From an uncultured Candidatus Saccharibacteria bacterium (lineage in GTDB: Bacteria; Patescibacteriota; Minisyncoccia; Phycocordibacterales; CAYGLL01), in NCBI GenBank assembly GCA_964350935.1, contig CAYGLL010000001.1:38090-102089 (forward strand): a stretch of DNA of 64,000 nucleotides, given 5' to 3'. Position numbers and translations under genes: made by a program. Positions within the stretch are counted from its first letter, which is position 1. Each line of letters opens with the position of its first letter. Of this stretch, positions 6,563 through 47,835 are shown in pieces. Under the pieces are notes generated by a model. That model was not told the DNA's origin, did no database searches, and worked only from the letters and a program-made list of their open reading frames with translations.

Positions 6563-7135
6563 TTGCTTATGAAAAAAGTAAATCTAGGTTCCGGACAGTT
6601 TAATAAAGAGGGATTTATCAACGTTGATTTTGATTCGCATACGTCACCCGACGTAGTGCACAATCTTGATGTCTTTCCATACCCATTCGAGTCAAACTCA
6701 GTTGACTATGTTGAGGCAGACCACGTGTTGGAGCACCTGAGTGATCCGTGGAAAACGATGGCCGAAATTCAGCGCATTTTAAAGCCCGGGTCAACCTGCA
6801 GTATCCGCGTCCCGCATTTTTCCCGGGGGTTTTCTCATCCGGATCACAAGCGCGGCTTTGATGTAACCTTTCCGTACTATTTCGATCCGGCATTTAAGGG
6901 CGGATATTCGGGGACTGAGCTTCAGTGCGAATCGGTTACACTTACCTGGTTTGCTCAGCCATATTTTAAGAAAACTGTTTTTTCTCCGGGGTTGTTCTAT
7001 TTTCTTACGTTTGTCGGAACACTCGTAGATTTTTTTGCATGGATCTCGCCCCCCGCATGTTCGCGTATCTGGTGTTTCTGGGTCGGCGGATTTGAAGAGG
7101 TGAGTTTTATTTTAAAAAAACCGATTAAAAAGTAA
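6563..7135 (+). CDS. Class I SAM-dependent methyltransferase (small Methyltransf_11-like)
   Basis: VNLGSG glycine-rich SAM motif, acidic motif-II region, and a conserved LKPGS... post-I region, as in the other methyltransferases in this locus. Confidence 0.55.
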   Translation: MLMKKVNLGSGQFNKEGFINVDFDSHTSPDVVHNLDVFPYPFESNSVDYVEADHVLEHLSDPWKTMAEIQRILKPGSTCSIRVPHFSRGFSHPDHKRGFDVTFPYYFDPAFKGGYSGTELQCESVTLTWFAQPYFKKTVFSPGLFYFLTFVGTLVDFFAWISPPACSRIWCFWVGGFEEVSFILKKPIKK

Positions 7136-7184
7136 TCGAATTGAGCCCTTGTTATTCAGTGCAAGAGCGACTATCATACCAAAC

Positions 7185-7640
7185 ATGATCGACGGACTTG
7201 TAGTAAAAAAAATTACCGCACACCAGGATGTTAGTGGTTTTTTCGCCGAACTTACCAAGGATGGCGAAGATTCCTACCGTGATATGAAACAGGTGAGCTA
7301 CAGCGAAACGTACCCGGGAGTTATCAAGGCTTTTCATTTACATAAGGCGTACTGGGAAAGCTGGGCTGTTGTCAAAGGAATGGCTGAGGTTGTTATTTAT
7401 GATTGTCGCGAAGATTCAAAAACGAAGGGCGAAACACAGGTTTTTGTCACCGGCGAAAAAAATATGATGTTTATCACGATTCCGCCGGGTGTTGCTCATG
7501 GTTACCGCGCGCTCGGAAATCAGGCTGTCGGTGTGATTTACTGTGCGGGTAAAGCGTACGATCCAAAAAATCCCGGTATCGAAAATATTCCCCACGATGA
7601 TTCGACGATCAACTATAACTGGAGTCGTGGAAACGGTTGA
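7185..7640 (+). CDS. Sugar-nucleotide cupin enzyme (RmlC 3,5-epimerase / FdtA-WxcM 3,4-ketoisomerase family)
   Basis: RGfHLHK...IPPGVAHGY cupin motifs. The likely start is MIDGLVV at 7185; the ORF track begins at 7149. Confidence 0.6.
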   Translation: MIDGLVVKKITAHQDVSGFFAELTKDGEDSYRDMKQVSYSETYPGVIKAFHLHKAYWESWAVVKGMAEVVIYDCREDSKTKGETQVFVTGEKNMMFITIPPGVAHGYRALGNQAVGVIYCAGKAYDPKNPGIENIPHDDSTINYNWSRGNG

Positions 7641-7682: not shown

Positions 7683-8690
7683 ATGAAAAGCGTGCAGAAG
7701 CTTAAAGGAAAACGCGTCTTAGTTTTGGGCGGTGCCGGCTTTATCGGTACGCATCTCATTCAACGTCTCTTAACACGTGAAGATGTCGCGAGTATTGTGC
7801 TTGTTGATTCGCTCCACTCTGCACTTGGAAGCTCAACCGAAAACATCCGGCCATTTTTAAAACGTATTAACTTTATTCAAGGGGATATGGGTGATAAAAA
7901 ACTCATGGACAAACTTGTCCGTGAGGCTGATGTTATTTTCAACTGCGCCGGCCAGACATCGCATAGTTTCTCGCTCGAAGATCCGATTTTGGATACGCTC
8001 ATAAACTGTCTCGGCAACCTCACACTTTTAACCGCCATTAAGGATGCAAAGGTGAAGCCGACCGTAGTGTTTCTTTCGTCGAGTACCCTGGTGGGAAAAG
8101 CGCAGCGCGAGATTATTGATGAAACACATCCTGAAGAGCCGCTTGAAATTTATTCTGCCAACAAAGGTGTCGCTGAAAAGTACTATCGCATTTTTAACCG
8201 CGTGTATGGAATTCCAACGGTTGGCGTACGCCTCGCGAATGTGTACGGACCATTTGGAAGAGCAAAACCCTCCTTTGGCTTTATGAATTATTTTATTAAC
8301 CTCGCGAAAGAAGGGAAGCCGATAACTATTTATGGCGATGGTGGACAACTGCGTAATGTAACCTATGTTGAGGATGTGGTTGAAGCAATTATCCGTGCTG
8401 CAGGTGAGGCGAAGCTTCACGGCGGATCATTTTTTGTAACGCATCATGATCACTATACCATCAAGGAAATTGCTGAAGAGATGGTGCGCGTTTTTGAAGG
8501 AGGCTCAGTCGTGCACGTCCCGTGGCCTGACGAGCGCAAGCAGATTGAAATTGACGCGGTAAGGTTTTCCGCTGAACGTTTCCACGGTCACACCGGCTGG
8601 AAAGCAGAGCATTCGCTTAGGGAGGGCTTAGAAAAAACAAAAAAAATAATTATCGACCCGCGACTTTTCTACGGCGACGGAGACTATTGA
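7683..8690 (+). CDS. NAD-dependent sugar-nucleotide epimerase/dehydratase (extended SDR)
   Basis: VLVLGGAGFIGTHL Rossmann motif, YSANK (YxxxK) catalytic motif. Confidence 0.8.
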   Translation: MKSVQKLKGKRVLVLGGAGFIGTHLIQRLLTREDVASIVLVDSLHSALGSSTENIRPFLKRINFIQGDMGDKKLMDKLVREADVIFNCAGQTSHSFSLEDPILDTLINCLGNLTLLTAIKDAKVKPTVVFLSSSTLVGKAQREIIDETHPEEPLEIYSANKGVAEKYYRIFNRVYGIPTVGVRLANVYGPFGRAKPSFGFMNYFINLAKEGKPITIYGDGGQLRNVTYVEDVVEAIIRAAGEAKLHGGSFFVTHHDHYTIKEIAEEMVRVFEGGSVVHVPWPDERKQIEIDAVRFSAERFHGHTGWKAEHSLREGLEKTKKIIIDPRLFYGDGDY

Positions 8691-8771: not shown

Positions 8772-9365
8772 ATGAATGCTGATCAGGTTGCGAGACTTAA
8801 TTTCGATGAACTTAAGGCGGAAGATCGGGAAGTCCTCCTTCTTAAGGCTTTCCGATGGATGCGGGCACAGAAGCGCCTGCCGTATCCCGTGTACATGGAA
8901 CGCGTGCAGACATTTCCGACTGTCTTTGTCGATGTGTTCACGTGTGTGAAGGGTCCCTTCGGTTGGGAGATTCTACTTGATGAAAGGCCAGCAAACGATG
9001 CTCATTTCGCAGGGAGACACCATGTTCCGGGTACGACAGTTATGCTTCGAGACTCATTCGAAGTTGCAAAGAATGTGACGATAGATGAATCTGTCTCGTC
9101 GGGCGCAGGGGATACCCTCAGATTCCTTGGTGTGATCAATTTTCCGAAAATGCACCGCGAGCACGCGGTAGTCATTGCATATCTGAGAATTCTTTCTCAG
9201 AAACCGGAGAAGCCTGCATCTGGTGCTTTCCACCGGCTTGCCGAGCTGCCTGAACCTTTGATCGAGCATCAGCGTCGTACCTACTTTCATCTGGTCCGTG
9301 CTGCTCTTGAATGCGGAGAACGCTGGCAGCCGATTGTGGTCGAGCTGCTCGAAGCGACTGAGTGA
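8772..9365 (+). CDS. Hypothetical protein (197 aa) embedded in the sugar locus
   Basis: ORF with a good SD. I recognise no family; it is followed by a strong terminator. Confidence 0.4.
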   Translation: MNADQVARLNFDELKAEDREVLLLKAFRWMRAQKRLPYPVYMERVQTFPTVFVDVFTCVKGPFGWEILLDERPANDAHFAGRHHVPGTTVMLRDSFEVAKNVTIDESVSSGAGDTLRFLGVINFPKMHREHAVVIAYLRILSQKPEKPASGAFHRLAELPEPLIEHQRRTYFHLVRAALECGERWQPIVVELLEATE

Positions 9366-9423: not shown

Positions 9424-10359
9424 ATGAAGGTTATGAAAAAACAGACGGTCTTTATTACCGGAGCATTGGGCCATATCGGCTCGCGTTTGATACGGGAAAT
9501 TTCTGAAACAGTGGGAGAAGTTCGGATGCTCGACAATATGGAAGCAAAGCGTTTCTCGTCGCTCTATGATCTGCCGACGAACATTAAGTATATTTTTTAT
9601 GAGCAGGATATCCGCGCCGCCGACTTTGATGAGCTTTTGAAAGGTGTTGATGTGGTCATTCATCTTGCGGCACTTTCCGAGGCAGAAAAAAGTGTCGAGT
9701 ATAAAACCCTGGTTGAGGAGGTGAATATTAAAGGCCTCGACCGGGTTATTCAGGCTGCGATGAAAAACAAGGTAAAACTCATTTTTCCATCAACGACGAG
9801 CGTGTATGGTGACAAAATTCCGAAAGTTTTAGAGACAGGCGAGATCAGCCCGCAGAGTCCGTATGCCGATTCGAAGTTTCGAGGCGAAGAGATCATCAGA
9901 AGTTACGGCGGTAAAGGTTTGAAGTTTACGATCTTTCGCTTTGCAACGATTTACGGATTTTCCCCCGGCATGCGTTTTTCGACCGCAGTCAATCGTTTTG
10001 TCTGGCAGGCGGCAACTGGCCGGCCGCTTTCAGTCTGGAAAACAGCTTTGAAGCAGAAACGCCCCTATCTTTACCTAGGAGATTGTATTCAGGCGATTAA
10101 TCTCATTCTTGAAAAAAATATTTTTGAAGGTGAGGTGTACAACGTTTGTACTGAAAATACTGACGTTGAAACGGTAACCGAAGCGATTAAGGAATTTATC
10201 CCAAAGCTTGAGATCGGTTTAGTTGACTCAAAAGTTATGAATAGTTTTTCATACGATCTCATTACCGAAAAAATAACCAAGCTCGGTTTTGTGCCGAAGG
10301 GCAATCTACGCTCTGGTATTAAAGAAATGATTGATCATTTTCAAGGGCTTACAGGATAG
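9424..10359 (+). CDS. NAD-dependent epimerase/dehydratase family protein
   Basis: FITGALGHIGSRL Rossmann motif, YADSK catalytic motif. Start chosen at the ATG at 9424 (MKVMKKQ); the ORF-track start at 9298 would overlap the upstream gene and its terminator. Confidence 0.75.
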   Translation: MKVMKKQTVFITGALGHIGSRLIREISETVGEVRMLDNMEAKRFSSLYDLPTNIKYIFYEQDIRAADFDELLKGVDVVIHLAALSEAEKSVEYKTLVEEVNIKGLDRVIQAAMKNKVKLIFPSTTSVYGDKIPKVLETGEISPQSPYADSKFRGEEIIRSYGGKGLKFTIFRFATIYGFSPGMRFSTAVNRFVWQAATGRPLSVWKTALKQKRPYLYLGDCIQAINLILEKNIFEGEVYNVCTENTDVETVTEAIKEFIPKLEIGLVDSKVMNSFSYDLITEKITKLGFVPKGNLRSGIKEMIDHFQGLTG

Positions 10360-10397: not shown

Positions 10398-11567
10398 ATG
10401 TCTATTAAACTTTCTCCTGTTATTGATTTCGGCAAGATGCCGATTGCCAATGCCTTTTTGACTCCCGAGGAATTTTCTAAGGAATTTTTTTACGATATGG
10501 TGGTGGGTTTTGATTCCAAGACTTCTGCGATTGGACTCGTAAACACCGTGCCACCTGAAAAAATGTTCCACGACCATTACGCCTTTTTCTCGTCGACTTC
10601 GCAGTATATGAAGCGTCATTTTGCGGAGACTGCAAAAAAGTTGGAGCCATATGCTAGAAAGGGAATTGTGGTTGAGATGGGCTCGAATGACGGCGTGATG
10701 CTTGAGGCCTGGAAGGAAATGAACGTGCGTGCAATCGGTGTTGAACCTTCCAGCAACGTCGCAGCCGCCTCAAAAGCAAAAGGGCATGAAGTGATCGTTG
10801 ATTTTATGAGCGAAAAAGTTGCTGATGAAATTTTGAGCCGCGGAAAAGTGAGTGTGGTCTACGGCGCGAATGTTTCGTGTCACATTGAAAATTTTGAAGC
10901 ATATGTCAAAAATGTCGCGAAGCTCATTGGTCGGGAAGGAGTCTTCGTGTTCGAGGATCCTTACTTTATCGATATGGTTGAAAAAACCTCGTACGATCAG
11001 GTATACGACGAACATTTGTGGTACTTCACGCTCGCGTTTATTAACAACATGTTCAATCCACTTGGTTTCCATGTTTTTGATTGTGAACACATTCCAGTTC
11101 ACGGCGGAGAACTGCGCATGTACGTCGGACATAAAGATACGCATAAAATAACATCACGCGTCGGGGAGTGGGTGGTGAAAGAAAAAAATCTTGAGGGACA
11201 ACTTGAAACCTTGAAGAAGAACATCGCGCTTTCCAAAACGAAACTTGTCGATTTACTCAACGCGCTCAAAAAAGAACACAAAAAGATTTGTGGCTTCGGC
11301 GCAACCTCTAAAGGTGTCATTGTTACGAACTACTGCGGCATCGGTCCTGATCTTGTTCCATTTATCACTGACAACACGCCGATCAAGCAGGGAAAGTTTT
11401 ATCCCGGCGTTCACATTCCGATCGTGCCGCAGGAGGAGTTTAAAAATGTCGATATCGGGGTGTTATTTGCGTGGAATCATTTTGAAGAGATCGCCAAGTC
11501 ACAGAAATGGTTTACCGACGGGGGCGGCAAATGGGTGACGCATGTACCGATGCCACGAATTGTATAA
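10398..11567 (+). CDS. Sugar C-methyltransferase family protein (TylC3/EryBIII-like, C-terminal C-methyltransferase domain)
   Basis: The C-terminal ...GFGATSKGVIVTNYCGIGPDLVPFITDNTPIKQGKFYPGVHIPIVPQEE...GVLFAWNHFEEI matches the conserved C-methyltransferase C-terminal domain. The N-terminal Cys4 zinc-binding module typical of the family is absent. Confidence 0.65.
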   Translation: MSIKLSPVIDFGKMPIANAFLTPEEFSKEFFYDMVVGFDSKTSAIGLVNTVPPEKMFHDHYAFFSSTSQYMKRHFAETAKKLEPYARKGIVVEMGSNDGVMLEAWKEMNVRAIGVEPSSNVAAASKAKGHEVIVDFMSEKVADEILSRGKVSVVYGANVSCHIENFEAYVKNVAKLIGREGVFVFEDPYFIDMVEKTSYDQVYDEHLWYFTLAFINNMFNPLGFHVFDCEHIPVHGGELRMYVGHKDTHKITSRVGEWVVKEKNLEGQLETLKKNIALSKTKLVDLLNALKKEHKKICGFGATSKGVIVTNYCGIGPDLVPFITDNTPIKQGKFYPGVHIPIVPQEEFKNVDIGVLFAWNHFEEIAKSQKWFTDGGGKWVTHVPMPRIV

Positions 11568-11585: not shown

Positions 11586-12230
11586 ATGGATAACCAGAGT
11601 GAATGGCTGTTTCTCGCTAATGAGCTTTTATCGCCCGTATTGCCGCAGACATCGTTCGATGCGTTTTTTGTGCATGGCTGGGCAGATCTTCACGACGAAA
11701 TGATTGAGTTTGTTGGTGTCGCATATAAAAAATATAAACCGCGGCTGGTTCTCATAAACGGAGAAAAAGAATATGAACCAGGAAAACCAGGTGTCGAATA
11801 TTGGAAGACAGAGCTTGAAAAGCGAGGGATTCCTCGTGATGCAATTCGCGGGGCCATTCCCGGACTTCATACCCTTTACGAAGCGAAGAGTTTCTGTGCT
11901 ATTGGAGCCGCTGAAAAACTCTCTAAAATCCTTGTTATCTCAGTTCCTCAGCATGTAATTCGGGCATTTTTGACTAACGTAGGCTGGGCCTTACATGAGA
12001 AGTTGCCTTTTAGGTTTGCGGGTCGCAGTATGGCTGGGGTAGAGTGGAACGAGCCGATTAGTGTAGAGGGTCTCATGAATAATCACGAAGAGACTACACG
12101 CGTTGGCCGTTTGGTTTCCGAATGTGGCCGGATCGTTAAATATCGATCGTTGTACGAAGCGGGGGACGATAATTGCGCGATCGCATCTTTTAACGAAGGC
12201 GCAGACCATATACGAAATTTTTCAAAATAA
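11586..12230 (+). CDS. Hypothetical protein, possibly DUF218/YdcF-like
   Basis: 214-aa ORF with weak resemblance only. Confidence 0.3.
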   Translation: MDNQSEWLFLANELLSPVLPQTSFDAFFVHGWADLHDEMIEFVGVAYKKYKPRLVLINGEKEYEPGKPGVEYWKTELEKRGIPRDAIRGAIPGLHTLYEAKSFCAIGAAEKLSKILVISVPQHVIRAFLTNVGWALHEKLPFRFAGRSMAGVEWNEPISVEGLMNNHEETTRVGRLVSECGRIVKYRSLYEAGDDNCAIASFNEGADHIRNFSK

Positions 12231-39914: not shown

Positions 39915-40604
39915 ATGATACCGAAAGTGATTGGTTTTGACTTTGACGGAGTGATTACAGTTGCGGGCGAGAGGGCAAAACAAGTGGGGTGGAGCGTCCT
40001 TCTCATGGAGCTAGTGGCCGAGGGACACCCAAAAAATCTGCCGGAGGTTTTTGCAGCCGAGCAGGAACGGTTTGTCGGTAAAAATGCCGTCGTTAAAGGT
40101 GATCGATATGACATTCTCTGGGGAATGTGGCGTGGGCTTAATTACCCGGGAGAAAAATGTTGTACGTTGGTTAATGAGTGTGCTTGGCGCTACGACAGTA
40201 TTACCCGAAAACTCATCGTTGAGTCTGGCGTCCACCCCTCAACTCATCTCGCACTTCAAAACTGGAAGAGGAAAGGGATTCCGCTCTACATCATTTCAGC
40301 AACGCCGGAAGAAGCGCTTGTGCAAAGTGTCCGGGAACTTTCGCTCGAAGGGTTCGGCTTCACTAAGATTCTGGGTTTTCCCAAAAAGAAACCCGATCAT
40401 CTGCGCGAGATCATTGCGGAGAAGAGGATTCAGTCCGGCGAACTTCTTTTTATCGGTGACTCTTCCGGCGATTACAAAGCGGCACAGACTGTGCAGTGCG
40501 GATTCATCGGGGTTGGAAATGAGTTCAATCAGTGGACCACTCAAAGCCAGCCATTTCCGGTTGTACGGTTGCTAACAGAGATTGATACTGTGGTAGGTCT
40601 CTAG
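39915..40604 (+). CDS. HAD-superfamily hydrolase (probable sugar-phosphate phosphatase)
   Basis: Motif I VIGFDFDGVIT and a C-terminal GDSSGD motif IV. Confidence 0.65.
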   Translation: MIPKVIGFDFDGVITVAGERAKQVGWSVLLMELVAEGHPKNLPEVFAAEQERFVGKNAVVKGDRYDILWGMWRGLNYPGEKCCTLVNECAWRYDSITRKLIVESGVHPSTHLALQNWKRKGIPLYIISATPEEALVQSVRELSLEGFGFTKILGFPKKKPDHLREIIAEKRIQSGELLFIGDSSGDYKAAQTVQCGFIGVGNEFNQWTTQSQPFPVVRLLTEIDTVVGL

Positions 40605-41776: not shown

Positions 41777-41778
41777 GT

Positions 41779-42495
41779 ATGAACGTTTTAGCCATTATTC
41801 AGGCACGCGGAGGTTCAAAGGGAATTCCGGGAAAAAATATTAAGCTCTTGTGCGGCAAACCTTTAATTGCGTGGACAATTGAAGCGGCGAAAAATGCGAA
41901 AACGGTAACACGGGTTATTGTTTCAACTGACGACGAGGCGATTGCCGAGGTATCAAAAAAGTATGGAGCTGAGGTTCCATTTTTACGTCCAGCAGAGTTT
42001 GCAACCGATGGTGCCAAGAGCATCGGTCTTCTTGAGCACGCGCTTAATTTTTTGAAGGAGAAAGAAAATTACGAAACCGATGTTGTGGTTCAGTTGAAGC
42101 CGACTAATCCATTACGCACGAGTACTCAGATCGACCAGTGCGTCGAGTTGTATCAAGAGAGTGTCGATCTTGATGCGGTTATTACGGTCGTGAAAGCACC
42201 TGTTCATCCTCTTAAAACCTGGAAGTTTGAAGGTGAATCGCTCCAACCATTTGTACCAGAGAATGTATTCGGCATCAAAGAAGCAGCCAAAACCCCTCGC
42301 CAAAAACTTCCTGAAGCCTACGGAAACAACTCCTGTGTCCATGTGATTAATCCCAAAACCATTCTTGAAAAACATTCGTCGATTGGAACACGTGTGAAGG
42401 GTGTCGTACTTTCGCGCGAGGACTCAATCAACATCGACGAACCGATTGATTTTGAGATTGCCGAGTTATTACTTAAAAAACGCCTCGGAAAATAA
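41779..42495 (+). CDS. Acylneuraminate (nonulosonate) cytidylyltransferase, NeuA/CTP_transf_3 family, copy 2
   Basis: AIIQARGGSKGIPGKN...KPTNPL; collinear with copy 1 at 33584. Confidence 0.75.
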   Translation: MNVLAIIQARGGSKGIPGKNIKLLCGKPLIAWTIEAAKNAKTVTRVIVSTDDEAIAEVSKKYGAEVPFLRPAEFATDGAKSIGLLEHALNFLKEKENYETDVVVQLKPTNPLRTSTQIDQCVELYQESVDLDAVITVVKAPVHPLKTWKFEGESLQPFVPENVFGIKEAAKTPRQKLPEAYGNNSCVHVINPKTILEKHSSIGTRVKGVVLSREDSINIDEPIDFEIAELLLKKRLGK

Positions 42496-43110
42496 ATGAA
42501 AACTCGATTTATATTTATCCGTCACGCTCAAAGTGTCGCCAAAGAATTGGGCATTGTGCAGGGTGATGGTGCGTCAACTCCTCTTTCAGCTTTGGGTAAA
42601 GAACAGGCTGAAAAACTGGGCAATAGTTTTAAGTCAGAAAAATGTGATCGATTGTTTGCCTCGACCTCGGTGCGCGCCGTTGAGACTGCGGCCCAGATTA
42701 AAAAATTTCATGCACCGGTTCTCTATGAAGAGATCAGGGAACTTCACGAGCGCTCAAAAGGTGAGGCGGAGGGAATGAAACAGGAGGAGTTTGAAAAAAA
42801 ATATCCGGAAGTACTTGAAGCATGGGGGAGGGAAGAAGATCCGCGACCTGCGGGGGGCGAGAGTTTTGAGGATGTTGAAAAGCGCGTGATGCCGATTATT
42901 GAACGCCACCTCAAAGAATATGCGGGACAAACCCTCGCCTATGTCATCCACGGCAACGTTATCCGTGTTATTTTGGGAGCGATGCTTGGAATCCCTCCGG
43001 CTAAGCGTAACAGATTGGTTCAGGATTATTGTGCTGTAAATATCGCGGAATTCGATACCGCAAAGGGCCGCTGGAAGATTATCGCAAGTAATCGGGATGT
43101 CATCTCCTAA
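42496..43110 (+). CDS. Histidine phosphatase family protein (phosphoglycerate-mutase-like)
   Basis: FIRHAQS (RHG-type motif) near the N-terminus; 204 aa. Confidence 0.65.
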   Translation: MKTRFIFIRHAQSVAKELGIVQGDGASTPLSALGKEQAEKLGNSFKSEKCDRLFASTSVRAVETAAQIKKFHAPVLYEEIRELHERSKGEAEGMKQEEFEKKYPEVLEAWGREEDPRPAGGESFEDVEKRVMPIIERHLKEYAGQTLAYVIHGNVIRVILGAMLGIPPAKRNRLVQDYCAVNIAEFDTAKGRWKIIASNRDVIS

Positions 43111-44212
43111 TAAAAAAACAACACCGGTGGCTCTTTTCGATCCAGTCGCCTTTTTAAAAGAACAGTATGGTTTTTCCGTTCGCGATGTCCGGCCTCCGGA
43201 TGGAAAGGCAGACTCAAGTCAGGTTTTTATTGTGACAACCGAAGAGGCTGGCGAGGTTGTTCTCAAGGCGTCGTTCTGGTATCAGGGTTTTGCGAAAAAT
43301 CCGATCGAGGCACTAGAAACGGTTTACCAAACTATTCATGCTCTTGCTGAGCGAGGGCTTCCGATTCAGCGAGCATATAAAAATGGGGCTGGAAGATTTG
43401 TTTCTGACGTCGAAGGGATTCCGTGGGTTACGCTAACCTACTTTTCAGGAAAGCCGTTTAGTGGAACCGAAGAAGAGTTTGCTGCTACCGGCAAAGCGCT
43501 GGGACTTTTTCATAAGACGGGCGCTGCTTATTTAAATGAGGTTCCCCCAATGCGGAAGGCGATAACTGAAAAAGTTCCCGTCGAGAAACCGTACGAAGAA
43601 TCCCGAGATTTGTATCTAACGAAAGGCTTCCGTGAACTTTTGGAGAAACCCCACATTGGTTGTGGAAATGGGAGTGTGTGTGACGTTGTGCGGCAAGCAA
43701 TTCCGTTGATCGATGAAACAATTACATTTATAGATTCTTCATTCAAAGAGGTCGGATCCTTAACCGCAAGCATCTTGCATAATGATTTTAGTCACGCGAA
43801 CGGCCTTTACCACGAGGACGGCAGTTTCGGGGGGTTTCTTGATGCCGATCAATTGGGTGTAGGGCCGGCGGTTTTTGATATCGGGAACACTCTCGCATCG
43901 TTTGCAACTGAATTTTTAAAAAAAGGAACAGTAAAAGAGTTAGAAATCCGAGTGGGACTCTTTCTTTTACAGTATCACTCGGTGTGGCCGCTCCGGGAAA
44001 AAGAATACGCGCTCATCTTAGCTGCGACACAGAGGTGGGATATACAGCGTGTACTGCGCACGATGCGCCGGCATCATTTCGAGGACAATCGTCTCCCGGA
44101 TCTTGTTCCAAAGGTTTCTAGTCGTTTTTTACCGCGCATTAAAGGTATAAAAACCTGGTTTGCTTTTCTGACCCCCCACTGGATTGAGAAGACGCTTTCG
44201 ATCAAAAATTAA
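43097..44212 (+). CDS. APH/choline-kinase-like small-molecule (sugar) kinase
   Basis: ILHNDFSHANGLY (HxDxxxxN catalytic loop) and FLDADQLGVG (metal-binding Asp). Confidence 0.55.
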   Translation: MSSPNKKTTPVALFDPVAFLKEQYGFSVRDVRPPDGKADSSQVFIVTTEEAGEVVLKASFWYQGFAKNPIEALETVYQTIHALAERGLPIQRAYKNGAGRFVSDVEGIPWVTLTYFSGKPFSGTEEEFAATGKALGLFHKTGAAYLNEVPPMRKAITEKVPVEKPYEESRDLYLTKGFRELLEKPHIGCGNGSVCDVVRQAIPLIDETITFIDSSFKEVGSLTASILHNDFSHANGLYHEDGSFGGFLDADQLGVGPAVFDIGNTLASFATEFLKKGTVKELEIRVGLFLLQYHSVWPLREKEYALILAATQRWDIQRVLRTMRRHHFEDNRLPDLVPKVSSRFLPRIKGIKTWFAFLTPHWIEKTLSIKN

Positions 44213-44251: not shown

Positions 44252-45388
44252 TCAGCCTTTGAGTGTAATCAAGAAGAGTCCTAGAATCACGGTCATGGCC
44301 GTGAGGATGCGGACAAACTTTTCTTGCGGTGTGCCGCCCTCGCGGAGAACATAGATGCCATAGAACGCTCCAAACACCACTGAAACGCGCTTAATGGCGA
44401 GGTAGTAATTCACGTTATGGCCGTAGAGTGTGGTGTTCATGATGAGAATGATCGCCGCGTAGACGATCCCCATCAGGAGAAATGTCCGGCGGTAATTTCT
44501 GAAGACAAACGAAACGCGCTCCCAACCTCCTTCAGCAAGTGTCCAGCCCATACAGATCAAAAACACTACGAAAGGGACAATGATACCGTGAAGGAAAGGA
44601 TTTCCCGCATCAACTGCCACTTTGTCGAAGTTGACCGCAACGCCGGCGATAACCGTGGATATTGCTCCGGTTAACACCGGGTGATGAGCAAACCAGTCTC
44701 CCTCGGGTGCGCCTTCGGGCGTTTTCTTTTTGGCCAGAAATCCATTTGCAGCAATTGCAATTACGGTGATGACGATTCCGATGAATCCGAGCGTACTTAC
44801 CGTCGGGCTCGTTATTCCCGAGCCGCTTCCGACGAGCGCGAACGCAAGATAGGAAAGCGGAAGAGAAATGATCGGAACCAGACTCTGTGTCGTTGAGACG
44901 AGCGAAACATCGCCGTAGCGCAGCGCTTTGGTAAAGAGGTAAAAAATGAAAACATTCAAAACCCCCGATCCCACGGTTGCCCACCAGAAGTGAACACTCT
45001 TAATCTCAAAAGTAACCTGGCGACCAAAGAGAAGAGGCGAGATAAGAATTCCTCCGAGGCCGACGATGAGCGCCACTAAGGGGTAATAACCCATCAGCGT
45101 TTCGTGATCCTTCAGCTTGAGTCCGGGATTCTCGAGAAGTCGAGGGTCGTTTCCCTTAGGGAAAAGATCTTTTGCCATCGGTTGAAAGAGAAATCCGGTT
45201 ATCATTGCCCCCAAGAGAAGGAGGCCTGTCCACCAGAGGTTTTCGCGTGATTCCGTGGTAATCACCCCTGCATATTTGATTACACCGAGAAAAAGAGCCC
45301 AGATGAAAAGTGCAGTGATGACAGTCGTTTTTCGTGATTGTTGGTTCATGTAGTACGTAGTCGCAGTATTCTTATCAGTATAATGCAT
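44252..45388 (-). CDS. DMT/EamA-like integral membrane transporter (paralog-like to 34563-35498)
   Basis: About 10 TM helices. ...VSLVSTTQSLVPIISLPLSYLAF and ...NFDKVAVDAGNPF parallel motifs in the other DMT protein. The true start may be the internal Met MNQQS. Confidence 0.45.
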   Translation of the reverse strand: MHYTDKNTATTYYMNQQSRKTTVITALFIWALFLGVIKYAGVITTESRENLWWTGLLLLGAMITGFLFQPMAKDLFPKGNDPRLLENPGLKLKDHETLMGYYPLVALIVGLGGILISPLLFGRQVTFEIKSVHFWWATVGSGVLNVFIFYLFTKALRYGDVSLVSTTQSLVPIISLPLSYLAFALVGSGSGITSPTVSTLGFIGIVITVIAIAANGFLAKKKTPEGAPEGDWFAHHPVLTGAISTVIAGVAVNFDKVAVDAGNPFLHGIIVPFVVFLICMGWTLAEGGWERVSFVFRNYRRTFLLMGIVYAAIILIMNTTLYGHNVNYYLAIKRVSVVFGAFYGIYVLREGGTPQEKFVRILTAMTVILGLFLITLKG

Positions 45389-45447
45389 TAAAAATTTATT
45401 GTGTCAAAACGTGGCCTTTTTAGACGATCTGTCATAAAATACCCGTT

Positions 45448-47835
45448 ATGAATAAATTTTTACGCTACTTTATCGTGGGTGGTGCGTTAGCGACACTGTT
45501 CCTTCCACTTCTTATTAGCGACTCTATATTTTTTCCGTTCATTTCAGGTAAGAATTTTCTTTTTAGAATCATTGTAGAGCTCATGCTCGCCGCCTGGGTT
45601 CTTCTCATGCTGCGTATGCCTGAGTATCGCCCGCGCTCATCGCTTATTTCGCGTGCGCTCATTCTCTTTATCACCATTCTCACGCTTGCTGATATTTTCG
45701 CCATGAATCCCTACAAGGCATTTTGGTCAAATTTTGAGCGTATGGAAGGTCTCATTGGTTTTTTGCACCTTCTCGGATATTTCTTTGTAGTGAGTTCGGT
45801 CATTCGAACTGAAAAATTGTGGGGAATACTCTTTCATACTTCTATCGGCGTGAGCCTCTTTACCTGTCTCTATGCGTCGCTTCAGATCGGCGGAGAGCTC
45901 GCTATTAACCAGGGAGGTGTACGTGTTGATGCAACGTTTGGAAATGCTATTTATCTTGCCGTATATCTTTTGTTTCATATATTTCTTGTCAAAAAACGTG
46001 TCTACGGACCTAAAGAAATTTTCAAGAGTGTCATGTTGGGTAGCGCTATGTTTTTGATCTATTACCTTGTCCGCGTCAGTTCAAGTTCGATCGAGGCGCA
46101 TCGTATTGGCGTCATCCTCTCTCTTTCGTCACTTGCCGCACTTCTTCTTTCAGGATATGCGCTTCAAACAAGTAAGGAGCGCGTGCTTAAACTCTTGCGT
46201 ATCGTGTTCGAGTGGCTCCTCATTATCTTTTACGTTGTGGTCATTTTCTACACAGCAACCCGAGGTGTGATTGTCGGCTTGGGTGCTTCCCTTATAGTTC
46301 TTGCCGTACTTCTTCTACTGGCTCCCGAAAACGAATCACGTCGCGTGTATCGGAAAATTGGCGGTGGAATTCTTCTCCTTATTATACTTGCGGGCGCCTC
46401 TTTCTTTATGTTCCGTGATGTCCCCGCGATCCGGAATCACCATGTGTTTGGGCGCCTGGCCTCCGTTTCTATTACCGGGGACGATGCAACGGCACGCTAT
46501 CGTGTGTGGGGAATGGCGTTTGAAGGTTTTAAGGAACGCCCGATCCTTGGCTGGGGTCAGGAAGGTTTCAACTACGTATTTAATAAGTATTACGATCCGA
46601 AAATGTACGCGCGTGAACAGTGGTTTGATCGCACGCACGATGTGTTTCTCGACTGGTTGATCGCCGGTGGCATCTTTGGTCTCTTGAGTTATCTCTTTAT
46701 CTACTTTGCACTGCTGCGTCGTGTCTGGAAGGCGCCTCGCGGGACACCTGAAGACAGAGAAGCCTACACACTTTCATACGTGGAGAAGGTGGTGCTTACA
46801 GCTGTTGTTACCGGTTACTTTATTCAAAACTTCTTTGTTTTCGATAACCTGACGAGCTACATCGTATTCTTCATCCTTCTTTCCTACGTTCACTTTGTTA
46901 CCACCTCAAGGTTAAGGGTGGCAGAGCGCGTAAGTGAATTCAATACCGTCACGCATCAGCTTGTTCCAGCACTCACCGTTGTGCTTCTTGTTTTCGCACT
47001 CTATTTCTTTAACGTGAAGCCAATTATGGCGGGACAAACGCTTATCGCGGCGTTGCAGCAGTATCCGATGACTCAAAATGGTGAAGGTGGGCCAGCGAAA
47101 AATTTGGAACTGTTTAAGAAAGCACTTTCGTATAATACGTTTGCTGCAAGCGAGATTCGCGAACAGTTGGCGCAGGTTGCAACTACCATTTTCCAGGCAA
47201 AGGATGCGCCAGAGAGTCTGAAGACAGCTTACTTCGAGGTCGGGTACAACGAGCTCAAGGCTCAATTGGAGCAAACTCCTGAAGATGCGCGCTATCATTT
47301 ATTTATGGGTGTTTTCTTAAATGCAGCGGGACAGTATCAGGAAGGTGTGAGTTATCTCGAGAAGGCGCTTAGTTTTTCACCCACCAAGCAAACAATAATG
47401 TTTGAGCTGGGTACGAGTTACCTCAACGGCGGCGACTATGAAAAGGCTCTCGCGGTATTCAAGAAAGCATTTGAACTTGAACCGGCATTCAATGATGCCC
47501 GCATTATCTATGCGTTGGGTGCGGTCTATGCGAACAAGCAAGATCTTGCGGACAGTATTTTGATAGACGGTTTCGGAACAACTCTCGTGAATGATTCACG
47601 TTTGATGCAGGCCTACGCTAACAAGAAACAGTTTCCACGCTTGATTGAAATATATAAAAATCTGTTAGAGAAACAGCCGAATAACACTGATCTGCACCTG
47701 AGGCTCGCCGGCGCGTATTACCAAAACGGGCAGCGCGCGCTTGCTATAGCGCAGATACGCAAAGTAATTGAGATTGATCCAAATCTCAAGGAACAGGGCG
47801 AACAATCAATCAAAGAAATTCAGGAAGGGAAGTAA
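45448..47835 (+). CDS. O-antigen ligase/polymerase-like (Wzy_C) membrane protein fused to C-terminal TPR repeats
   Basis: Multi-TM N-terminal 500 aa with a large periplasmic loop, then C-terminal TPR-like repeats (...YEKALAVFKKAFELEP...). Confidence 0.7.
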   Translation: MNKFLRYFIVGGALATLFLPLLISDSIFFPFISGKNFLFRIIVELMLAAWVLLMLRMPEYRPRSSLISRALILFITILTLADIFAMNPYKAFWSNFERMEGLIGFLHLLGYFFVVSSVIRTEKLWGILFHTSIGVSLFTCLYASLQIGGELAINQGGVRVDATFGNAIYLAVYLLFHIFLVKKRVYGPKEIFKSVMLGSAMFLIYYLVRVSSSSIEAHRIGVILSLSSLAALLLSGYALQTSKERVLKLLRIVFEWLLIIFYVVVIFYTATRGVIVGLGASLIVLAVLLLLAPENESRRVYRKIGGGILLLIILAGASFFMFRDVPAIRNHHVFGRLASVSITGDDATARYRVWGMAFEGFKERPILGWGQEGFNYVFNKYYDPKMYAREQWFDRTHDVFLDWLIAGGIFGLLSYLFIYFALLRRVWKAPRGTPEDREAYTLSYVEKVVLTAVVTGYFIQNFFVFDNLTSYIVFFILLSYVHFVTTSRLRVAERVSEFNTVTHQLVPALTVVLLVFALYFFNVKPIMAGQTLIAALQQYPMTQNGEGGPAKNLELFKKALSYNTFAASEIREQLAQVATTIFQAKDAPESLKTAYFEVGYNELKAQLEQTPEDARYHLFMGVFLNAAGQYQEGVSYLEKALSFSPTKQTIMFELGTSYLNGGDYEKALAVFKKAFELEPAFNDARIIYALGAVYANKQDLADSILIDGFGTTLVNDSRLMQAYANKKQFPRLIEIYKNLLEKQPNNTDLHLRLAGAYYQNGQRALAIAQIRKVIEIDPNLKEQGEQSIKEIQEGK

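Follow-up and report, generated by a model that had tools for sequence, protein, structure and literature searches.

A Patescibacteria surface-sugar gene cluster with two recurring cassettes for putative unusual ulosonic acids

Results

A genuine gene cluster for surface sugars, about 48-49 kb long and made up of recurring cassettes (Table 1), lies in the window that we consider, a 64,000-nucleotide stretch of DNA from an ultrasmall bacterium of the Patescibacteria (CPR). The best overall explanation, which we hold at a probability of about 0.55, is one contiguous glycan-biosynthesis island whose cassettes recur shuffled in related genomes: cassettes A and B would each provide an ulosonic acid, variable cassette C would provide a C-methyl-branched amino-6-deoxyhexose, and the other genes would transfer and export the product. 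The gene families, conserved neighbourhoods, domain fusion and active-site motifs described below are observed directly.

A large, dense surface-glycan locus, almost entirely on one strand and with minimal gaps, had been predicted at 6563-47835. The HMM families and the layout bear this out: the range is 95% coding, with 35 of its 41 ORFs on the forward strand and six on the reverse, and most family assignments hold apart from individual exceptions given with the genes. The locus reaches further left, at least to the window end (position 29 or earlier), and probably further right through 47978..49009, whose homologues adjoin CMP-transferase genes in two related contigs (L026, 31%; L171, 29%). 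It is not a chimera, because its gene order is repeated in independent assemblies. Both the order TagF2-MT4-NeuB-MT5-TagF3 and the run EamA...NeuB-SAF...RmlB-RmlA-MT-HAD-GFO-CMPt-HisPhos-APH-EamA-Wzy_C-unknown-DHH are found in separate ENA and Logan assemblies, most modules occur together on the related MAG contig L003, and the GC content is even across the locus (0.44-0.50). The glycan had also been called undescribed for its lineage. That lineage is Patescibacteria, in which comparable loci are found repeatedly; the best relatives of the NeuB-cupin protein and of TagF3 are in Paceibacteria/Parcubacteria MAGs.

Table 1. Genes of the locus. Scores are in bits, with model cut-offs in brackets; features at 29-6464 lie left of the predicted range.
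Feature	Position	Strand	Evidence
GT-C-like polytopic membrane protein	29..1636	+	~9 hydrophobic segments; L003 homologue 38% identity
GT2, C-terminal TM helices	1633..2583	+	PF00535 109; two TM segments
AsnB-type glutamine amidotransferase	2588..4471	+	PF00733 346; TIGR01536 505 (267)
Second GT-C-like polytopic membrane protein	4479..6464	-	~9 hydrophobic segments; L003 ORF 41% identity
Class I SAM methyltransferase MT1	6563..7135	+	PF08241 39; homologues L003 58%, L026 54%
RmlC/CapF-type cupin (NDP-hexulose epimerase or isomerase)	7149..7640	+	PF00908 62; TIGR01221 47 (156)
Extended SDR 1 (dehydratase, epimerase or reductase)	7683..8690	+	PF01370 163
Protein without family	8772..9365	+	no Pfam match; PDB-sequence matches chance-level, best E = 0.03
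Extended SDR 2	9424..10359 (probable start; ORF opens 9298)	+	PF01370 135, from ORF residue 51
TylC3-type NDP-hexose C-methyltransferase	10398..11567	+	PF08421, PF13489, PF08484 (141 bits)
Protein without family	11586..12230	+	no Pfam or PDB match; same neighbour order in ENA contig L166
Short RmlD-like reductase (SDR)	12255..13004	+	PF04321 90, N-terminal half of model
DegT/PLP sugar aminotransferase	12982..14112	+	PF01041 331
GT4 glycosyltransferase	14120..15205	+	PF13692, PF00534
Methyltransferase MT2	15210..16139	+	PF13489 71
Methyltransferase MT3	16143..17051	+	PF13489 76
Flippase-like, LPG_synthase_TM family	17035..18027 (ORF opens 16897)	+	PF03706 115; TIGR00374 64 (43)
Wzx-like flippase	18033..19412	+	PF13440 24 (23); at least 10 hydrophobic stretches
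TagF/TarL-superfamily GT-B transferase TagF1	19418..20824	+	PF04464 26; BFO_1060 family 40 (200)
TagF/TarL-superfamily GT-B transferase TagF2	20848..22242	+	PF04464 30; BFO_1060 family 34
Methyltransferase MT4	22246..22887	+	PF13489 62
NeuB-family synthase with D-lyxose/D-mannose-isomerase-like cupin (A, core)	22975..24519	+	PF03102 153; PF07883; PF07385
Methyltransferase MT5	24549..25313	-	PF08241 72
TagF/TarL-superfamily GT-B transferase TagF3 (B, first gene)	25364..26722	+	PF04464 38
NeuC-type hydrolysing NDP-HexNAc 2-epimerase (B)	26736..27980 (ORF opens 26583)	+	TIGR03568 362 (236)
SQD1/SqdB/Agl3-family enzyme, "Pro101" type (B)	28128..29345	+	436 to Arabidopsis SQD1 (1QRR), full length
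Small polytopic membrane protein	29494..30153	+	hydrophobic segments; no significant Pfam match
Secreted protein, degenerate metzincin-like motif	30347..31162	+	N-terminal hydrophobic signal-like segment
GalE-like SDR (4-epimerase or 4-reductase) (B)	31213..32130	+	PF01370 214; TIGR01179 170, under cut-off
Sugar-1-phosphate nucleotidylyltransferase (B)	32133..32822	+	PF00483 77; L168 same position, 46% identity
NUDIX hydrolase (B)	32897..33505	+	PF00293 51; L168 same position, 45% identity
CMP-ulosonic acid synthetase 1 (B)	33584..34297	+	PF02348 81; PseF model 139 (206)
EamA/DMT transporter	34563..35498	-	PF00892 70
NeuB + SAF synthase (B)	35637..36668	+	PF03102 190; PF08666; TIGR03569 253 (400)
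Small protein without family	36700..37158	-	no significant Pfam match
RmlB, dTDP-glucose 4,6-dehydratase	37265..38242 (gene call, 325 aa; to 38308 at widest)	-	TIGR01181 421.6 (365)
RmlA-like glucose-1-phosphate thymidylyltransferase	38226..38966 (to 39005 at widest)	-	PF00483 197; TIGR01207 242 (361)
Methyltransferase MT6	39088..39831	+	PF08241 84
HAD-IA phosphatase (A)	39915..40604	+	PF00702 49
GFO/IDH/MocA oxidoreductase (A)	40688..41776	+	PF01408, PF22725
CMP-ulosonic acid synthetase 2 (A)	41779..42495	+	PF02348 95
Histidine phosphatase, His_Phos_1 (extended A)	42496..43110	+	PF00300 155
APH-fold kinase (extended A)	43097..44212	+	PF01636 55
EamA-like transporter	44252..45388	-	PF00892 32; L004 homologue 53% identity
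Wzy_C membrane domain with C-terminal TPR domain	45448..47835	+	PF04932 67 (32); TPR families
Protein without family	47978..49009	+	no Pfam match; recurs beside ulosonic-acid cassettes

NeuC, the two NeuB synthases and the two CMP-transferases are all confirmed by HMM, and by synteny the genes for nonulosonic acids fall into two conserved groups, cassettes A and B. The two separate NeuB/CMP-transferase pairs imply two different ulosonic acids, one of the two readings that had been proposed. Neither pair resembles a legionaminic, pseudaminic or acinetaminic acid set: the scores of the two synthases and the two CMP-transferases are all far under the Neu5Ac/Pse equivalog cut-offs. Further against such a set, no acetyltransferase family is matched among the ORFs scanned and no dehydratase/aminotransferase pair accompanies the NeuB/CMP-transferase pairs; we also count against it the rarity of NeuC near the NeuB-cupin gene (given below).

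We turn to cassette A. Its NeuB is part of a 514-aa fusion protein that has a cupin domain and lacks a SAF domain. The best PDB sequence match is 3G8R (307 bits), with NeuB/PseI at only 75-80 bits; on these scores the barrel is assigned to the 3G8R subfamily, far from NeuB/PseI. The cupin domain matches PF07385 at 29.6 bits (gathering cut-off 20.8), and the top Foldseek matches of its structure model (pLDDT 89) are the D-lyxose isomerases 2Y0O and 7NZO/P/Q, mannose and fructose complexes included (TM 0.65-0.70 across the entire domain). All 42 sequences compared share the motif HxHxxKxE and a later, distal His. Natural fusions join NeuB-cupin to CTP_transf_3 (P0096) or to PF01467 (P0114).

We counted neighbours in 55 loci whose flanks extend for 4 kb or more. 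Within 4 kb of NeuB-cupin, a CMP-transferase occurs in 50 of them, GFO in 25, TagF-like genes in 16, HAD in 13 and NeuC in only 2. HAD follows NeuB-cupin in many related loci, and the His-phosphatase and APH genes adjoin cassette A in L004, L010, L019, L023 and L030. Here the NeuB-cupin gene stands 16 kb apart from the remaining cassette A genes, which had been read as a "kinase/phosphatase salvage module" (39915-44212). The HAD, GFO, CMP-transferase, His_Phos_1 and APH genes are indeed present, but a free-standing salvage unit is rejected: relatives place HAD, GFO and the CMP-transferase, with or without the His-phosphatase and APH genes, directly beside NeuB-cupin, so that this segment is the displaced half of the NeuB-cupin cassette. 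No close solved or characterised homologue of the GFO and APH proteins was found.

Cassette B consists of genes for a TagF-like protein, NeuC, an SQD1-like enzyme, a GalE-like SDR, an NTP-transferase, a NUDIX protein, a CMP-transferase and NeuB-SAF; the NTP-transferase and the NUDIX protein had been overlooked. GCA_007376285.1 has exactly the same order, TagF3-NeuC-SQD1-GalE-NTPt-NUDIX-CMPt, with 45-68% identity. TagF3 adjoins NeuC in L003, L014, L168 and L171, and the GalE-like gene follows the SQD1-like one in L003, L014, L081, L082 and L168. The two genes between them here are insertions relative to related loci: the small membrane protein is absent there in L003 and L168, and the secreted protein has a weak Reprolysin_5 match (E = 1.3e-3) with the motif QEVGHLFGLDH.

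No other element of the locus is as unusual as the homologue of SQD1 (UDP-sulfoquinovose synthase), which the original prediction had also missed. It keeps the GTMGEYG and YHxSK motifs, and Thr145, Tyr182, His183 and Lys186 are conserved. Its clade, however, has Pro in place of Arg101, the residue whose mutation in Agl3 (R101A) inactivates the enzyme (PMC4388408). The clade also differs at SQD1 positions 229 and 231, where the changes co-vary, and the protein scores under the NCBIfam equivalog cut-off (NF041015, 433 bits vs 575). Sulfite addition may be lost in this clade; no sulfite-generating gene is found in the window. We also inspected the neighbours of the homologues recovered in an independent metagenome scan that started from SQD1. 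Of the 13 closest (53-61% identity), eleven adjoin a gene for NeuC, NeuB or a CMP-transferase, with gaps often of 4-90 bp, and the two without such neighbours lie on contigs of 2-3.5 kb. Most of the more distant homologues stand beside GalE-like and GT2 genes or other SDRs; one more of these (L117) has NulO neighbours.

For the dTDP-deoxysugar branch of cassette C, the predicted RmlA, RmlB, cupin, RmlD-like, DegT and C-methyltransferase proteins are all found, but a 3-amino sugar is not favoured because the highest-scoring models for the DegT protein are C4-aminotransferases (PseC 200 bits, WecE-type 193 bits; both under their cut-offs). Cassette C also includes SDRs; the best NCBIfam model for extended SDR 1 is dTDP-glucose 4,6-dehydratase (130 bits, under cut-off).

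The three predicted TagF-like proteins pass the PF04464 cut-off (22.1 bits) at 26-38 bits, but TagF-like polymerisation is weakly founded. They are distant GT-B enzymes: the match to TarL/TagF is limited to the C-terminal nucleotide-binding part, the N-terminal part weakly matches a Tannerella Pse/Leg transferase family, and the TagF3 structure model (pLDDT 93) is a generic GT-B. There is no TagD/TarI/TarJ-type (CDP-polyol) gene in the window. Some relatives have a TagD-like gene beside NeuB-cupin, and ulosonic-acid genes are lacking within 7 kb of three of the five TagF3 homologues that we sampled.

The GT4, Wzx-like, flippase-like and Wzy_C-TPR proteins are confirmed in the predicted range; AsnB, GT2 and the two GT-C-like proteins exist but all lie left of 6563. 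The GT2 resembles a polyprenyl-phosphate sugar synthase. The "GT-C" label has no Pfam/HMM or PDB-sequence match, the hydrophobic segments being its sole evidence. Wzy_C is the O-antigen ligase / O-oligosaccharyltransferase / polymerase family, and the Wzy_C-TPR gene stands beside cassette A in L001, L002, L006, L009, L026 and L037. Two EamA transporters had gone unnoticed. The richness in methyltransferases is real, but of the eight or more expected only seven are detectable within 6563-47835 (MT1-MT6 and the C-methyltransferase); the eighth, at position 55347, is on the far side of gyrA. No initiating phosphoglycosyltransferase is found among the ORFs scanned.

Discussion

All substrates, all products and the acceptor in the following scheme are ones that we infer. 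The product of cassette A is probably a Kdn-like, non-amino ulosonic acid. The metal-dependent cupin domain would convert a ketose (fructose or a phosphate ester) to a manno-configured aldose, as a D-lyxose/D-mannose isomerase might, and the NeuB barrel would condense this aldose with PEP to the Kdn-type acid. Removal of phosphate would fall to the putative HAD phosphatase and/or the His-phosphatase, modification of the sugar to the GFO oxidoreductase, and activation of the product to CMP-transferase 2. A precedent is the Kdn capsule locus of Serratia marcescens, which has neuA and neuB and no further sialic-acid gene, and whose NeuB carries an additional sugar-phosphate isomerase domain (PMC9000132). 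Two observations count against the proposal for cassette A. About half of the NeuB-cupin loci lack HAD and GFO. The substrates of D-lyxose isomerases are unphosphorylated sugars, which makes any roles of the HAD, His-phosphatase and kinase in cassette A less certain.

Cassette B probably makes a C9-modified Neu5Ac-like sugar, possibly a sulfonated one. Its NTP-transferase would make an NDP-HexNAc; the SQD1-family enzyme would then change C6 of this sugar, and the GalE-like SDR might act on its C4. NeuC would release a free ManNAc-type sugar, NeuB-SAF would condense it with PEP, and CMP-transferase 1 would activate the product, whose C9 group would be a sulfonate if the SQD1 chemistry is kept and deoxy if it is not.

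The three GT-B enzymes and the GT4 would transfer the activated sugars onto a carrier, and the six methyltransferases besides the C-methyltransferase would decorate them. The Wzx-like and flippase-like proteins would export the product, the GT2 and the two GT-C-like proteins may add sugar outside the membrane, and the Wzy_C-TPR protein would polymerise or ligate the product. The cassettes may also serve several different glycans and not one.

Two of the cassettes, with enzyme combinations that we did not find described in the literature, predict unusual sialic-acid-like sugars.

Layout and integrity of the locus

The original prediction described a dense surface-glycan locus at 6563-47835. The observation is largely right, but its interpretation needs revision with respect to a supposed salvage module, the type of nonulosonic acid (NulO), the TagF-like enzymes, the boundaries and the number of methyltransferases (MTs). 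The range is tiled by 41 ORFs of at least 150 aa, 35 on the plus strand and 6 on the minus strand, with a coding density of 95% and an even GC content (0.44-0.50). We scanned every ORF with Pfam and NCBIfam HMMs, and most of the families called earlier (RmlA/B, several extended SDRs, a GT4, NeuB, CMP-transferases, NeuC, DegT and others) agree with this annotation. The two PEP-condensing synthases of the NeuB family score 153 and 190 bits against PF03102 (cut-off 22), the two CMP-ulosonic acid synthetases score 81 and 95 bits against PF02348 (cut-off 22.6), and NeuC, a hydrolysing UDP-GlcNAc 2-epimerase present in a single copy in cassette B, scores 362 bits against TIGR03568 (cut-off 236). The inventory was incomplete, however, and had overlooked a full-length homologue of SQD1, a sugar-1-phosphate nucleotidylyltransferase, a NUDIX protein and two EamA transporters. 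Where eight or more MTs had been counted, we detect seven within the range, and the eighth lies past gyrA.

The dense locus stands, but its limits do not. AsnB, a GT2 and both GT-C-like proteins fall to the left of the start, and the locus therefore extends to the window edge. On the right-hand side, a 343-aa protein is probably part of the locus and may be an unrecognised component of ulosonic-acid loci; DHH, S1, MBL and GyrA genes follow it. The ORFs at 8772, 11586, 29227, 36700 and 47978 give nothing usable in Pfam (E up to 5) or in PDB sequence searches, and a tRNA scan finds none. The coordinates of the features are collected in the table.

Features of the glycan locus and its surroundings, in window coordinates
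Feature	Position	Strand	Remark
GT-C-like protein	29-1636		left of the predicted range
GT2	1633-2583		left of the predicted range
AsnB	2588-4471		left of the predicted range
GT-C-like protein	4479-6464	-	left of the predicted range
RmlC-like cupin	7149-7640	+	163 aa
NeuB copy 1 (NeuB-cupin fusion)	22975-24519		cassette A
TagF-like 3 (TagF3)	from 25364		cassette B
SQD1-like protein	28128-29345		cassette B
Two inserted ORFs	29494-31162	+	between SQD1-like and GalE-like
NeuB-SAF	35637-36668		cassette B
HAD, GFO, CMP-transferase 2, His-phosphatase, APH kinase	39915-44212		cassette A
343-aa protein	47978-49009	+	no family match; homologues adjoin CMP-transferase genes in two related loci, L026 (31%) and L171 (29%)
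Class I methyltransferase	55347-55877		just past gyrA
Solute-binding protein	55874-57160		before the pilin-like genes
Five T4SS-pilin-like genes	57138-59252	+	tandem paralogues, 120-146 aa; PF18895, TrbC/VirB2
GT2	62300-62980	-	PF00535, 102 bits; near the right window end, well outside the locus

The next question is whether such a locus could be an assembly chimera, an objection that the original prediction had raised against itself. The order TagF2-MT4-NeuB-MT5-TagF3 (TagF2 being the second TagF-like protein) and a 17.5-kb stretch from EamA and NeuB-SAF through the DHH gene are both reproduced in separate ENA and Logan assemblies. A contig of a related MAG (L003) carries the modules together, namely the GT-C-like, MT, Wzx, NeuB-cupin, HAD, CMP-transferase and GFO genes as well as the TagF-like, NeuC, SQD1-like, GalE-like, CMP-transferase and NeuB-SAF genes. 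Samples under the ENA accessions ERZ27247828 and ERR3094294 carry this contig. The objection therefore fails, the even GC content also speaking against a chimera, and the locus is real. As to lineage, the closest relatives of NeuB copy 1 among one-genome-per-species GTDB contigs belong to Paceibacteria, Parcubacteria and other Patescibacteria MAGs (59-67% identity), and every named homologue of the third TagF-like protein is from Patescibacteria.

A NeuB synthase fused to an isomerase-like cupin

NeuB copy 1 is a 514-aa fusion in which a cupin domain takes the place of the SAF domain. Its TIM-barrel part is nearest to an uncharacterised "SpsE" structure (PDB accession code: 3G8R, 307 bits) and distant from NeuB of N. 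meningitidis and from PseI (75-80 bits). The cupin domain scores 29.6 bits against PF07385 (gathering score 20.8), a sum to which no individual stretch contributes enough to pass alone, and the same family is annotated on most of 120 NeuB-cupin homologues among the matches listed. It aligns with the D-lyxose isomerase of B. subtilis (PDB accession code: 2Y0O), the N-terminal helix included. Across 42 sequences there is no variation in the metal ligands and the lysine (H89, H91, K94, E96 and H130 in domain numbering), which form the HxHxxKxE motif and a distal His; presumably the lysine has the role known from the D-lyxose isomerase family. In a structural search with the model of the domain (pLDDT 89), the best 10 Foldseek matches are all D-lyxose isomerases (2Y0O, 7NZO/P/Q, 3KMH/3MPB), with TM scores of 0.65-0.70 over 166-182 columns for 2Y0O and 7NZO/P/Q. 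We predict from these resemblances that the domain is an aldose-ketose isomerase.

To place the fusion in its context, the window proteins were compared with 80 loci encoding NeuB-cupin relatives, which span Patescibacteria, Bacteroidota, Salinisphaera, Lachnospiraceae, Elusimicrobia, Myxococcota and others. Neighbours were counted in those 55 loci that extend 4 kb or more to each side, considering genes no more than 4 kb from NeuB-cupin. A CMP-transferase is found in 50 of these 55 loci, a GFO oxidoreductase in 25, a TagF-like gene in 16, a HAD in 13 and NeuC in just 2. In 5 of the loci compared, a His-phosphatase and an APH kinase directly follow the cassette A genes. The window does contain the run of HAD, GFO, CMP-transferase, His-phosphatase and APH kinase genes that had been taken for a kinase/phosphatase salvage module, 16 kb away from the fusion gene. 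The same genes are syntenic with NeuB-cupin in the relatives, so what was called a "salvage module" is the rest of that NeuB's cassette, moved away from its synthase gene. Natural fusions exist as well, of NeuB-cupin to a CMP-transferase (protein P0096) and to a PF01467 cytidylyltransferase (protein P0114). Four related loci, all of the CPR, have a small TagD-like gene between the CMP-transferase and NeuB-cupin; outside these four, the apparent gap for a small gene at this place is an artefact of partial alignment.

D-Lyxose isomerases interconvert fructose and mannose, and xylulose and lyxose, and the substrates of NeuB-type synthases are manno-configured aldoses. This chemistry, and the fact that NeuC is nearly absent from the loci, point to a non-amino, Kdn-type ulosonic acid that cassette A would make from a ketose. 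The roles of the HAD (of type IA, phosphoglycolate-phosphatase-like), the His-phosphatase, the kinase and the GFO protein are guesses, and NCBIfam, Pfam and PDB sequence searches find no characterised close relatives of the four.

Several features of cassette A have counterparts in known systems. A phosphatase gene accompanies the synthase in the Bacteroides pathway, as it does here. The Kdn capsule locus of Serratia marcescens, a direct precedent, has neuA and neuB without other sialic-acid genes, and its NeuB bears an extra sugar-phosphate isomerase domain of another fold (PMC9000132), so that both systems combine a NeuB-family synthase carrying an added isomerase domain with a CMP-transferase, and do so without NeuC. 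The added domain of the Serratia protein is a TIM barrel of the COG1082 type, whereas that of cassette A is a cupin of the D-lyxose/D-mannose isomerase family. Cassette A further differs from the known Kdn systems in that its HAD is not KdsC-like, in the addition of GFO, His-phosphatase and APH kinase genes, and in that its product is a predicted one. A large phylogenetic survey mentions environmental NeuB proteins lacking the SAF domain and does not mention this fusion (PMC8208679), and no paper on NeuB with a cupin or with a lyxose isomerase was found in the literature searched. The fusion is present in many phyla, cultured Runella, Salinisphaera and Lachnospiraceae included.

An SQD1 paralogue in NeuC/NeuB operons

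We turn to cassette B, in which TagF-like 3, NeuC, the SQD1-like gene, two inserted ORFs, a GalE-like gene, an NTP-transferase, NUDIX, CMP-transferase 1, EamA (on the opposite strand) and NeuB-SAF follow one another. The same order through CMP-transferase 1, without the two inserted ORFs, is found in a Parcubacteria assembly (GCA_007376285.1) at 45-68% identity, and parts of it recur in five related loci (L003, L005, L014, L019, L030). The inserted ORFs, missing from that place in L003 and in another related locus (L168), encode a small polytopic membrane protein and a secreted protein whose metzincin-like motif is degenerate (QEVGHLFGLDH, the first His replaced by Gln).

The SQD1-like protein matches Arabidopsis SQD1 (PDB accession code: 1QRR) over its full length with 436 bits and is about 57% identical to plant SQD1. 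It keeps the GxxGxxG motif, Thr145, Tyr182, His183 and Lys186 (motifs GTMGEYG and SFYHASK) as well as the equivalents of Glu147/Tyr148, the pair implicated in dehydration. Its score against NF041015 is 433 bits, with an equivalog cut-off of 575, and it reaches 28 bits against the LegB model (cut-off 475). The association with NulO genes was checked apart from the NeuB-based sample by scanning metagenome contigs with the SQD1-like protein. Among the 13 closest homologues (53-61% identity), 11 have NeuC, NeuB or a CMP-transferase as an immediate neighbour, in varied orders and with gaps down to 4 bp, and the two that have no such neighbours are contigs of 2-3.5 kb. More distant homologues mostly occur with GalE-like and GT2 genes or with other SDRs, one of them (L117) also having NulO neighbours.

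One substitution complicates the comparison with SQD1. At position 101 the window protein reads AEQPSAP where SQD1 and Agl3 have EQRSAP, and the R101A variant of Agl3 is inactive, for which no reason is given (PMC4388408). Proline occupies this position in all 18 of the NulO-linked homologues; of 87 aligned sequences, 39, SQD1 among them, are of an Arg type and 48, with the window protein, are of a Pro type. Two more SQD1 positions change along with position 101, namely 229 (Arg to Ser) and 231 (Asp to His). The NeuC beside the SQD1-like gene forms, with its NeuB, an orthologue group of its own, about 64-66% identical among loci, while other NeuC/NeuB pairs there reach 30-37%. By these sequence criteria the Pro-type clade is a distinct paralogue, whose substrate, and possibly nucleophile, may differ from those of SQD1. 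Compared with SQD1, SqdB and Agl3 of Sulfolobus acidocaldarius, the enzyme shares full-length homology and the catalytic motifs but has Pro101, the changed positions 229 and 231 and a score under the cut-off, and its context is NeuC, NeuB and CMP-transferase rather than the glycosyltransferase of a sulfolipid or an N-glycan.

The homologues outside such operons fall into two further contexts. Arg-type homologues in twelve loci (L106, L128, L129, L131, L134, L139, L147, L149, L152, L153, L157, L159) are followed, in fixed order, by a GalE-like SDR and a DPM1-like GT2, which suggests a polyprenyl-phosphate-sulfoquinovose route and not the classical sqdB-sqdX sulfolipid pair. Pro-type homologues without NulO neighbours (L103, L112-L116, L118, L119, L122-L124, L127, L136, L138, L143, L146) are flanked by one or two extended SDRs and at times by AsnB, an uncharacterised context.

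The legionaminic pathway of Campylobacter jejuni consists of PtmE, LegB, LegC, LegH, LegG, LegI and LegF. Cassette B resembles it in having an NTP-transferase, a C4/C6 SDR, a NeuC-type 2-epimerase, a NeuB-type synthase and a CMP-transferase, and differs in having no aminotransferase or N-acetyltransferase and in that the SDR is the SQD1 paralogue, not LegB. For cassette B we predict a Neu5Ac-like acid with a modification at C9. We tentatively propose, with a probability of about one in four, that this sialic-acid-like sugar is C-sulfonated, as 9-deoxy-9-sulfo-Neu5Ac or one of its epimers. The dedicated SQD1-paralogue clade would add sulfite at C6 of an NDP-HexNAc, the co-evolved NeuC, NeuB and CMP-transferase would pass the 6-sulfo sugar on to a CMP-activated, doubly anionic NulO, and the sulfonated acid would be displayed on the surface of Patescibacteria. 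No paper linking a sulfoquinovose synthase with a nonulosonic acid was found in the literature searched.

The dTDP-sugar branch

The genes named earlier for a dTDP-deoxysugar branch are all present. RmlB scores 421.6 bits against TIGR01181 (cut-off 365), RmlA reaches 242 bits against a cut-off of 361 and 197 bits against PF00483, and the C-methyltransferase has the TylC3-type architecture of PF08421 plus PF08484 (the latter at 141 bits). RmlA/RmlB lie about 25 kb away from, and on the opposite strand to, the block of cupin, SDR, C-methyltransferase, RmlD-like and DegT genes. Nothing in the NeuB-cupin loci corresponds to the cupin, the C-methyltransferase, the GT4 or either unknown ORF of this left-hand block, whose other genes have sporadic, low-identity matches only; the block looks like a variable cassette. 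The 3-amino-dideoxyhexose that had been proposed as its product is not favoured. DegT scores best against C4-aminotransferase models, and a 4-amino sugar is therefore at least as likely as a 3-amino one.

The branch shares RmlA, RmlB, a cupin, the PF08421 plus PF08484 C-methyltransferase, DegT and an RmlD-like protein with the pathways of dTDP-branched sugars of the TylC3/TcaB9 type. It differs from them in the distance of RmlA/RmlB, in belonging to a cell-surface locus instead of an antibiotic cluster, and in the 2,3-dehydratase, which was not found in the locus. The RmlC-like cupin has two further matches, to PF14667 (46.7 bits) and to the cupin at the C-terminal end of the WbcJ reductase model, and may therefore be an epimerase domain of the CapF/WbjC type, not a classical RmlC.

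TagF-like transferases, assembly and export

Three TagF-like proteins had been predicted to polymerise the glycan. Their PF04464 matches pass (26, 30 and 38 bits against 22.1, with the model covered partially), but neither the equivalog scores nor the search for CDP-polyol supply genes in the window bears out TagF-type polymerisation. The N-terminal halves weakly match the BFO_1060 family of NCBIfam, and two of the three proteins have faint TarF or TarL matches in their C-terminal parts, with 20-22 bits against cut-offs of 550-1000. A profile of the TagF-like family matches TarL (PDB accession code: 8VA1) with 31 bits over the last ~115 residues only. The model of TagF3 (pLDDT 93) is a GT-B fold whose best 50 Foldseek matches are UDP-GlcNAc 2-epimerases and GT4 enzymes. 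The TagD motif GxFDxxHxGH is not found in any frame of the window, and neither PF01467 nor IspD is the best match of any ORF scanned. A strict tie between this family and ulosonic-acid genes is ruled out, as two of five independently sampled TagF3 homologues are in ulosonic-acid loci and three are not.

The pseudaminic and legionaminic acid transferases of Tannerella and TagF/TarL are both cytidine-nucleotide-dependent GT-B enzymes. The window proteins share the GT-B fold with the BFO_1060/Tanf_01245 family and with TagF/TarL and match both weakly, but score well under the curated cut-offs of the two families and have generic GT-B neighbours. The BFO_1060 family comprises the Tannerella forsythia transferases of these acids, whose genes lie in nonulosonic-acid loci and whose sequences include a TagB-like domain (PMC5420450). 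We conclude that the TagF-like proteins are a Patescibacteria-specific branch of the GT-B transferases of cytidine-nucleotide type. As CMP-ulosonic acids are the only cytidine-activated donors encoded in the locus, they are the likeliest donors; polymerisation of a teichoic-acid-like kind is a less likely possibility. A TagF3 homologue also occurs on another contig (L170, ENA ERZ27284378 k139_87659), between a heptose-like module (SIS_2, transaldolase, NTP-transferase) and a second module (AMP-binding enzyme, PP-binding carrier, ACPS, acyltransferases, formyltransferase), and is followed by a second TagF-like gene. The arrangement suggests a locus for an acylated or aminoacylated wall polymer in another Patescibacterium.

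For export, the Wzx-like protein is borderline (PF13440, 24 bits against 23). A 795-aa protein combines Wzy_C (PF04932, 67 bits against 32) with TPRs, recurs beside cassette A in several relatives, and may act as polymerase, ligase or O-oligosaccharyltransferase. The label GT-C given earlier to two proteins is compatible with their topology, about nine hydrophobic segments per protein and a soluble C-terminal part; neither protein has a Pfam match at E up to 5 or a match to a PDB sequence. No initiating polyprenyl-phosphate phosphoglycosyltransferase matches among the window ORFs scanned, and it may sit elsewhere in the genome. Past gyrA, the five tandem T4SS-pilin-like genes are preceded by the solute-binding protein and the class I methyltransferase, and their products are possible acceptors for the glycan. 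A further GT2 stands near the right window end.

Alternative readings

The sulfonated acid has to be weighed against two other uses of the SQD1-like enzyme. It could be an ordinary UDP-sulfoquinovose synthase that supplies a separate building block, as for the N-glycan of Sulfolobus or for SQDG, its adjacency to NulO genes arising from the clustering of glycan genes only. With the catalytic residues kept, its identity to plant SQD1 exceeds the ~40% of Agl3, a proven synthase, and GT4, GT2 and TagF-like transferases are on hand in the locus. We nevertheless consider this unlikely: the closest homologues are lodged among NeuC, NeuB and CMP-transferase genes in several orders, with minimal gaps and no conserved glycosyltransferase adjoining, Arg101 is Pro in the clade, the accompanying NeuC/NeuB genes are an orthologue group of their own, and the canonical Arg-type homologues have another conserved neighbourhood (GalE-like plus GT2). 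If, alternatively, the Pro101-type enzyme adds no sulfite and acts as a 4,6-dehydratase or forms a 5,6-ene, reduction of its product by the GalE-like SDR would give a 6-deoxy-HexNAc and finally a sulfur-free 9-deoxy-Neu5Ac-like acid. The loss of an arginine that is essential in Agl3, with the co-varying positions 229 and 231, would fit such an enzyme, as would the additional SDRs flanking other Pro-type homologues, the release of UDP-glucose-5,6-ene by Agl3 without sulfite, the lack of a sulfite source in the window and a logic that parallels LegB-LegG-LegI minus amination. It is a doubtful reading all the same, given the retained equivalents of His183 and Glu147/Tyr148 that are typical of SQD1 and the high overall identity to it; the locus already has ordinary 4,6-dehydratases, which are common enzymes, and an SQD1 paralogue doing the same job needs a reason.

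At the level of the whole locus, the original prediction read the two NeuB/NeuA pairs as making two amino-type NulOs (legionaminic, pseudaminic, acinetaminic), joined to the dTDP-sugar by TagF polymerases and with the run at 39915-44212 serving salvage. The two pairs are indeed present, with NeuC, DegT, SDRs and three PF04464 matches above the gathering score, the TarL match and the TagD-like gene beside NeuB-cupin in some relatives lending this some further credit. The assignment to those sets is not supported, however, as the Neu5Ac and Pse equivalog cut-offs are all missed widely: the synthases score 150 and 253 bits against NeuB_NnaB (cut-off 400) and 136 and 185 against PseI (340), the CMP-transferases score 139 and 151 against PseF (206), and the LegB, LegC and PseB/PseC models all stay under their cut-offs. 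Neither NeuB adjoins a dehydratase/aminotransferase pair, the sole DegT sitting in the dTDP cassette, and no acetyltransferase family, N-acetyltransferases included, has a match among the ORFs scanned. With the supposed salvage genes syntenic with NeuB-cupin in relatives, no TagD, TarI or TarJ motif in the window, the low TarF/TarL scores and no TagF or TarL among the best 50 structural matches of TagF3, we consider this reading unlikely. A real possibility, if well short of an even chance, is that the super-locus is an island of several independent systems (a wall polymer, a protein O-glycan, a lipid-linked glycan) and not the source of one decorated glycan. The cassettes occur apart and in varied combinations in relatives, the left-hand dTDP genes are poorly matched in NeuB-cupin loci, and the two flippase-type proteins, the Wzy_C-TPR protein and the GT2/GT-C pair belong to different assembly logics; against this stand the tight, almost single-strand organisation and the splitting of cassette A, whose interleaving with the other cassettes suggests co-regulation.

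Implications

As a kind of locus, this is a glycan biosynthesis island, which is already known. Two recurrent arrangements within it, the cassette of the NeuB-lyxose-isomerase fusion and the Pro-type SQD1 paralogue in NeuC/NeuB operons, are ones that we have not found described, and both are also seen well outside this genome. With their tiny genomes and a life attached to host cells, Patescibacteria have a biology in which the cell surface is central, and about 48 kb given to surface sugars is a considerable outlay for a genome of this size. No paper describing the surface glycans of Patescibacteria was found in the literature searched. The NeuB-cupin fusion would by itself take a ketose to a Kdn-type acid. 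If the prediction for the SQD1 paralogue is true, a sulfonated member would join the sialic acid family. Nonulosonic acids would then gain a new chemical class, and the reaction that forms sulfoquinovose a new role in biology.
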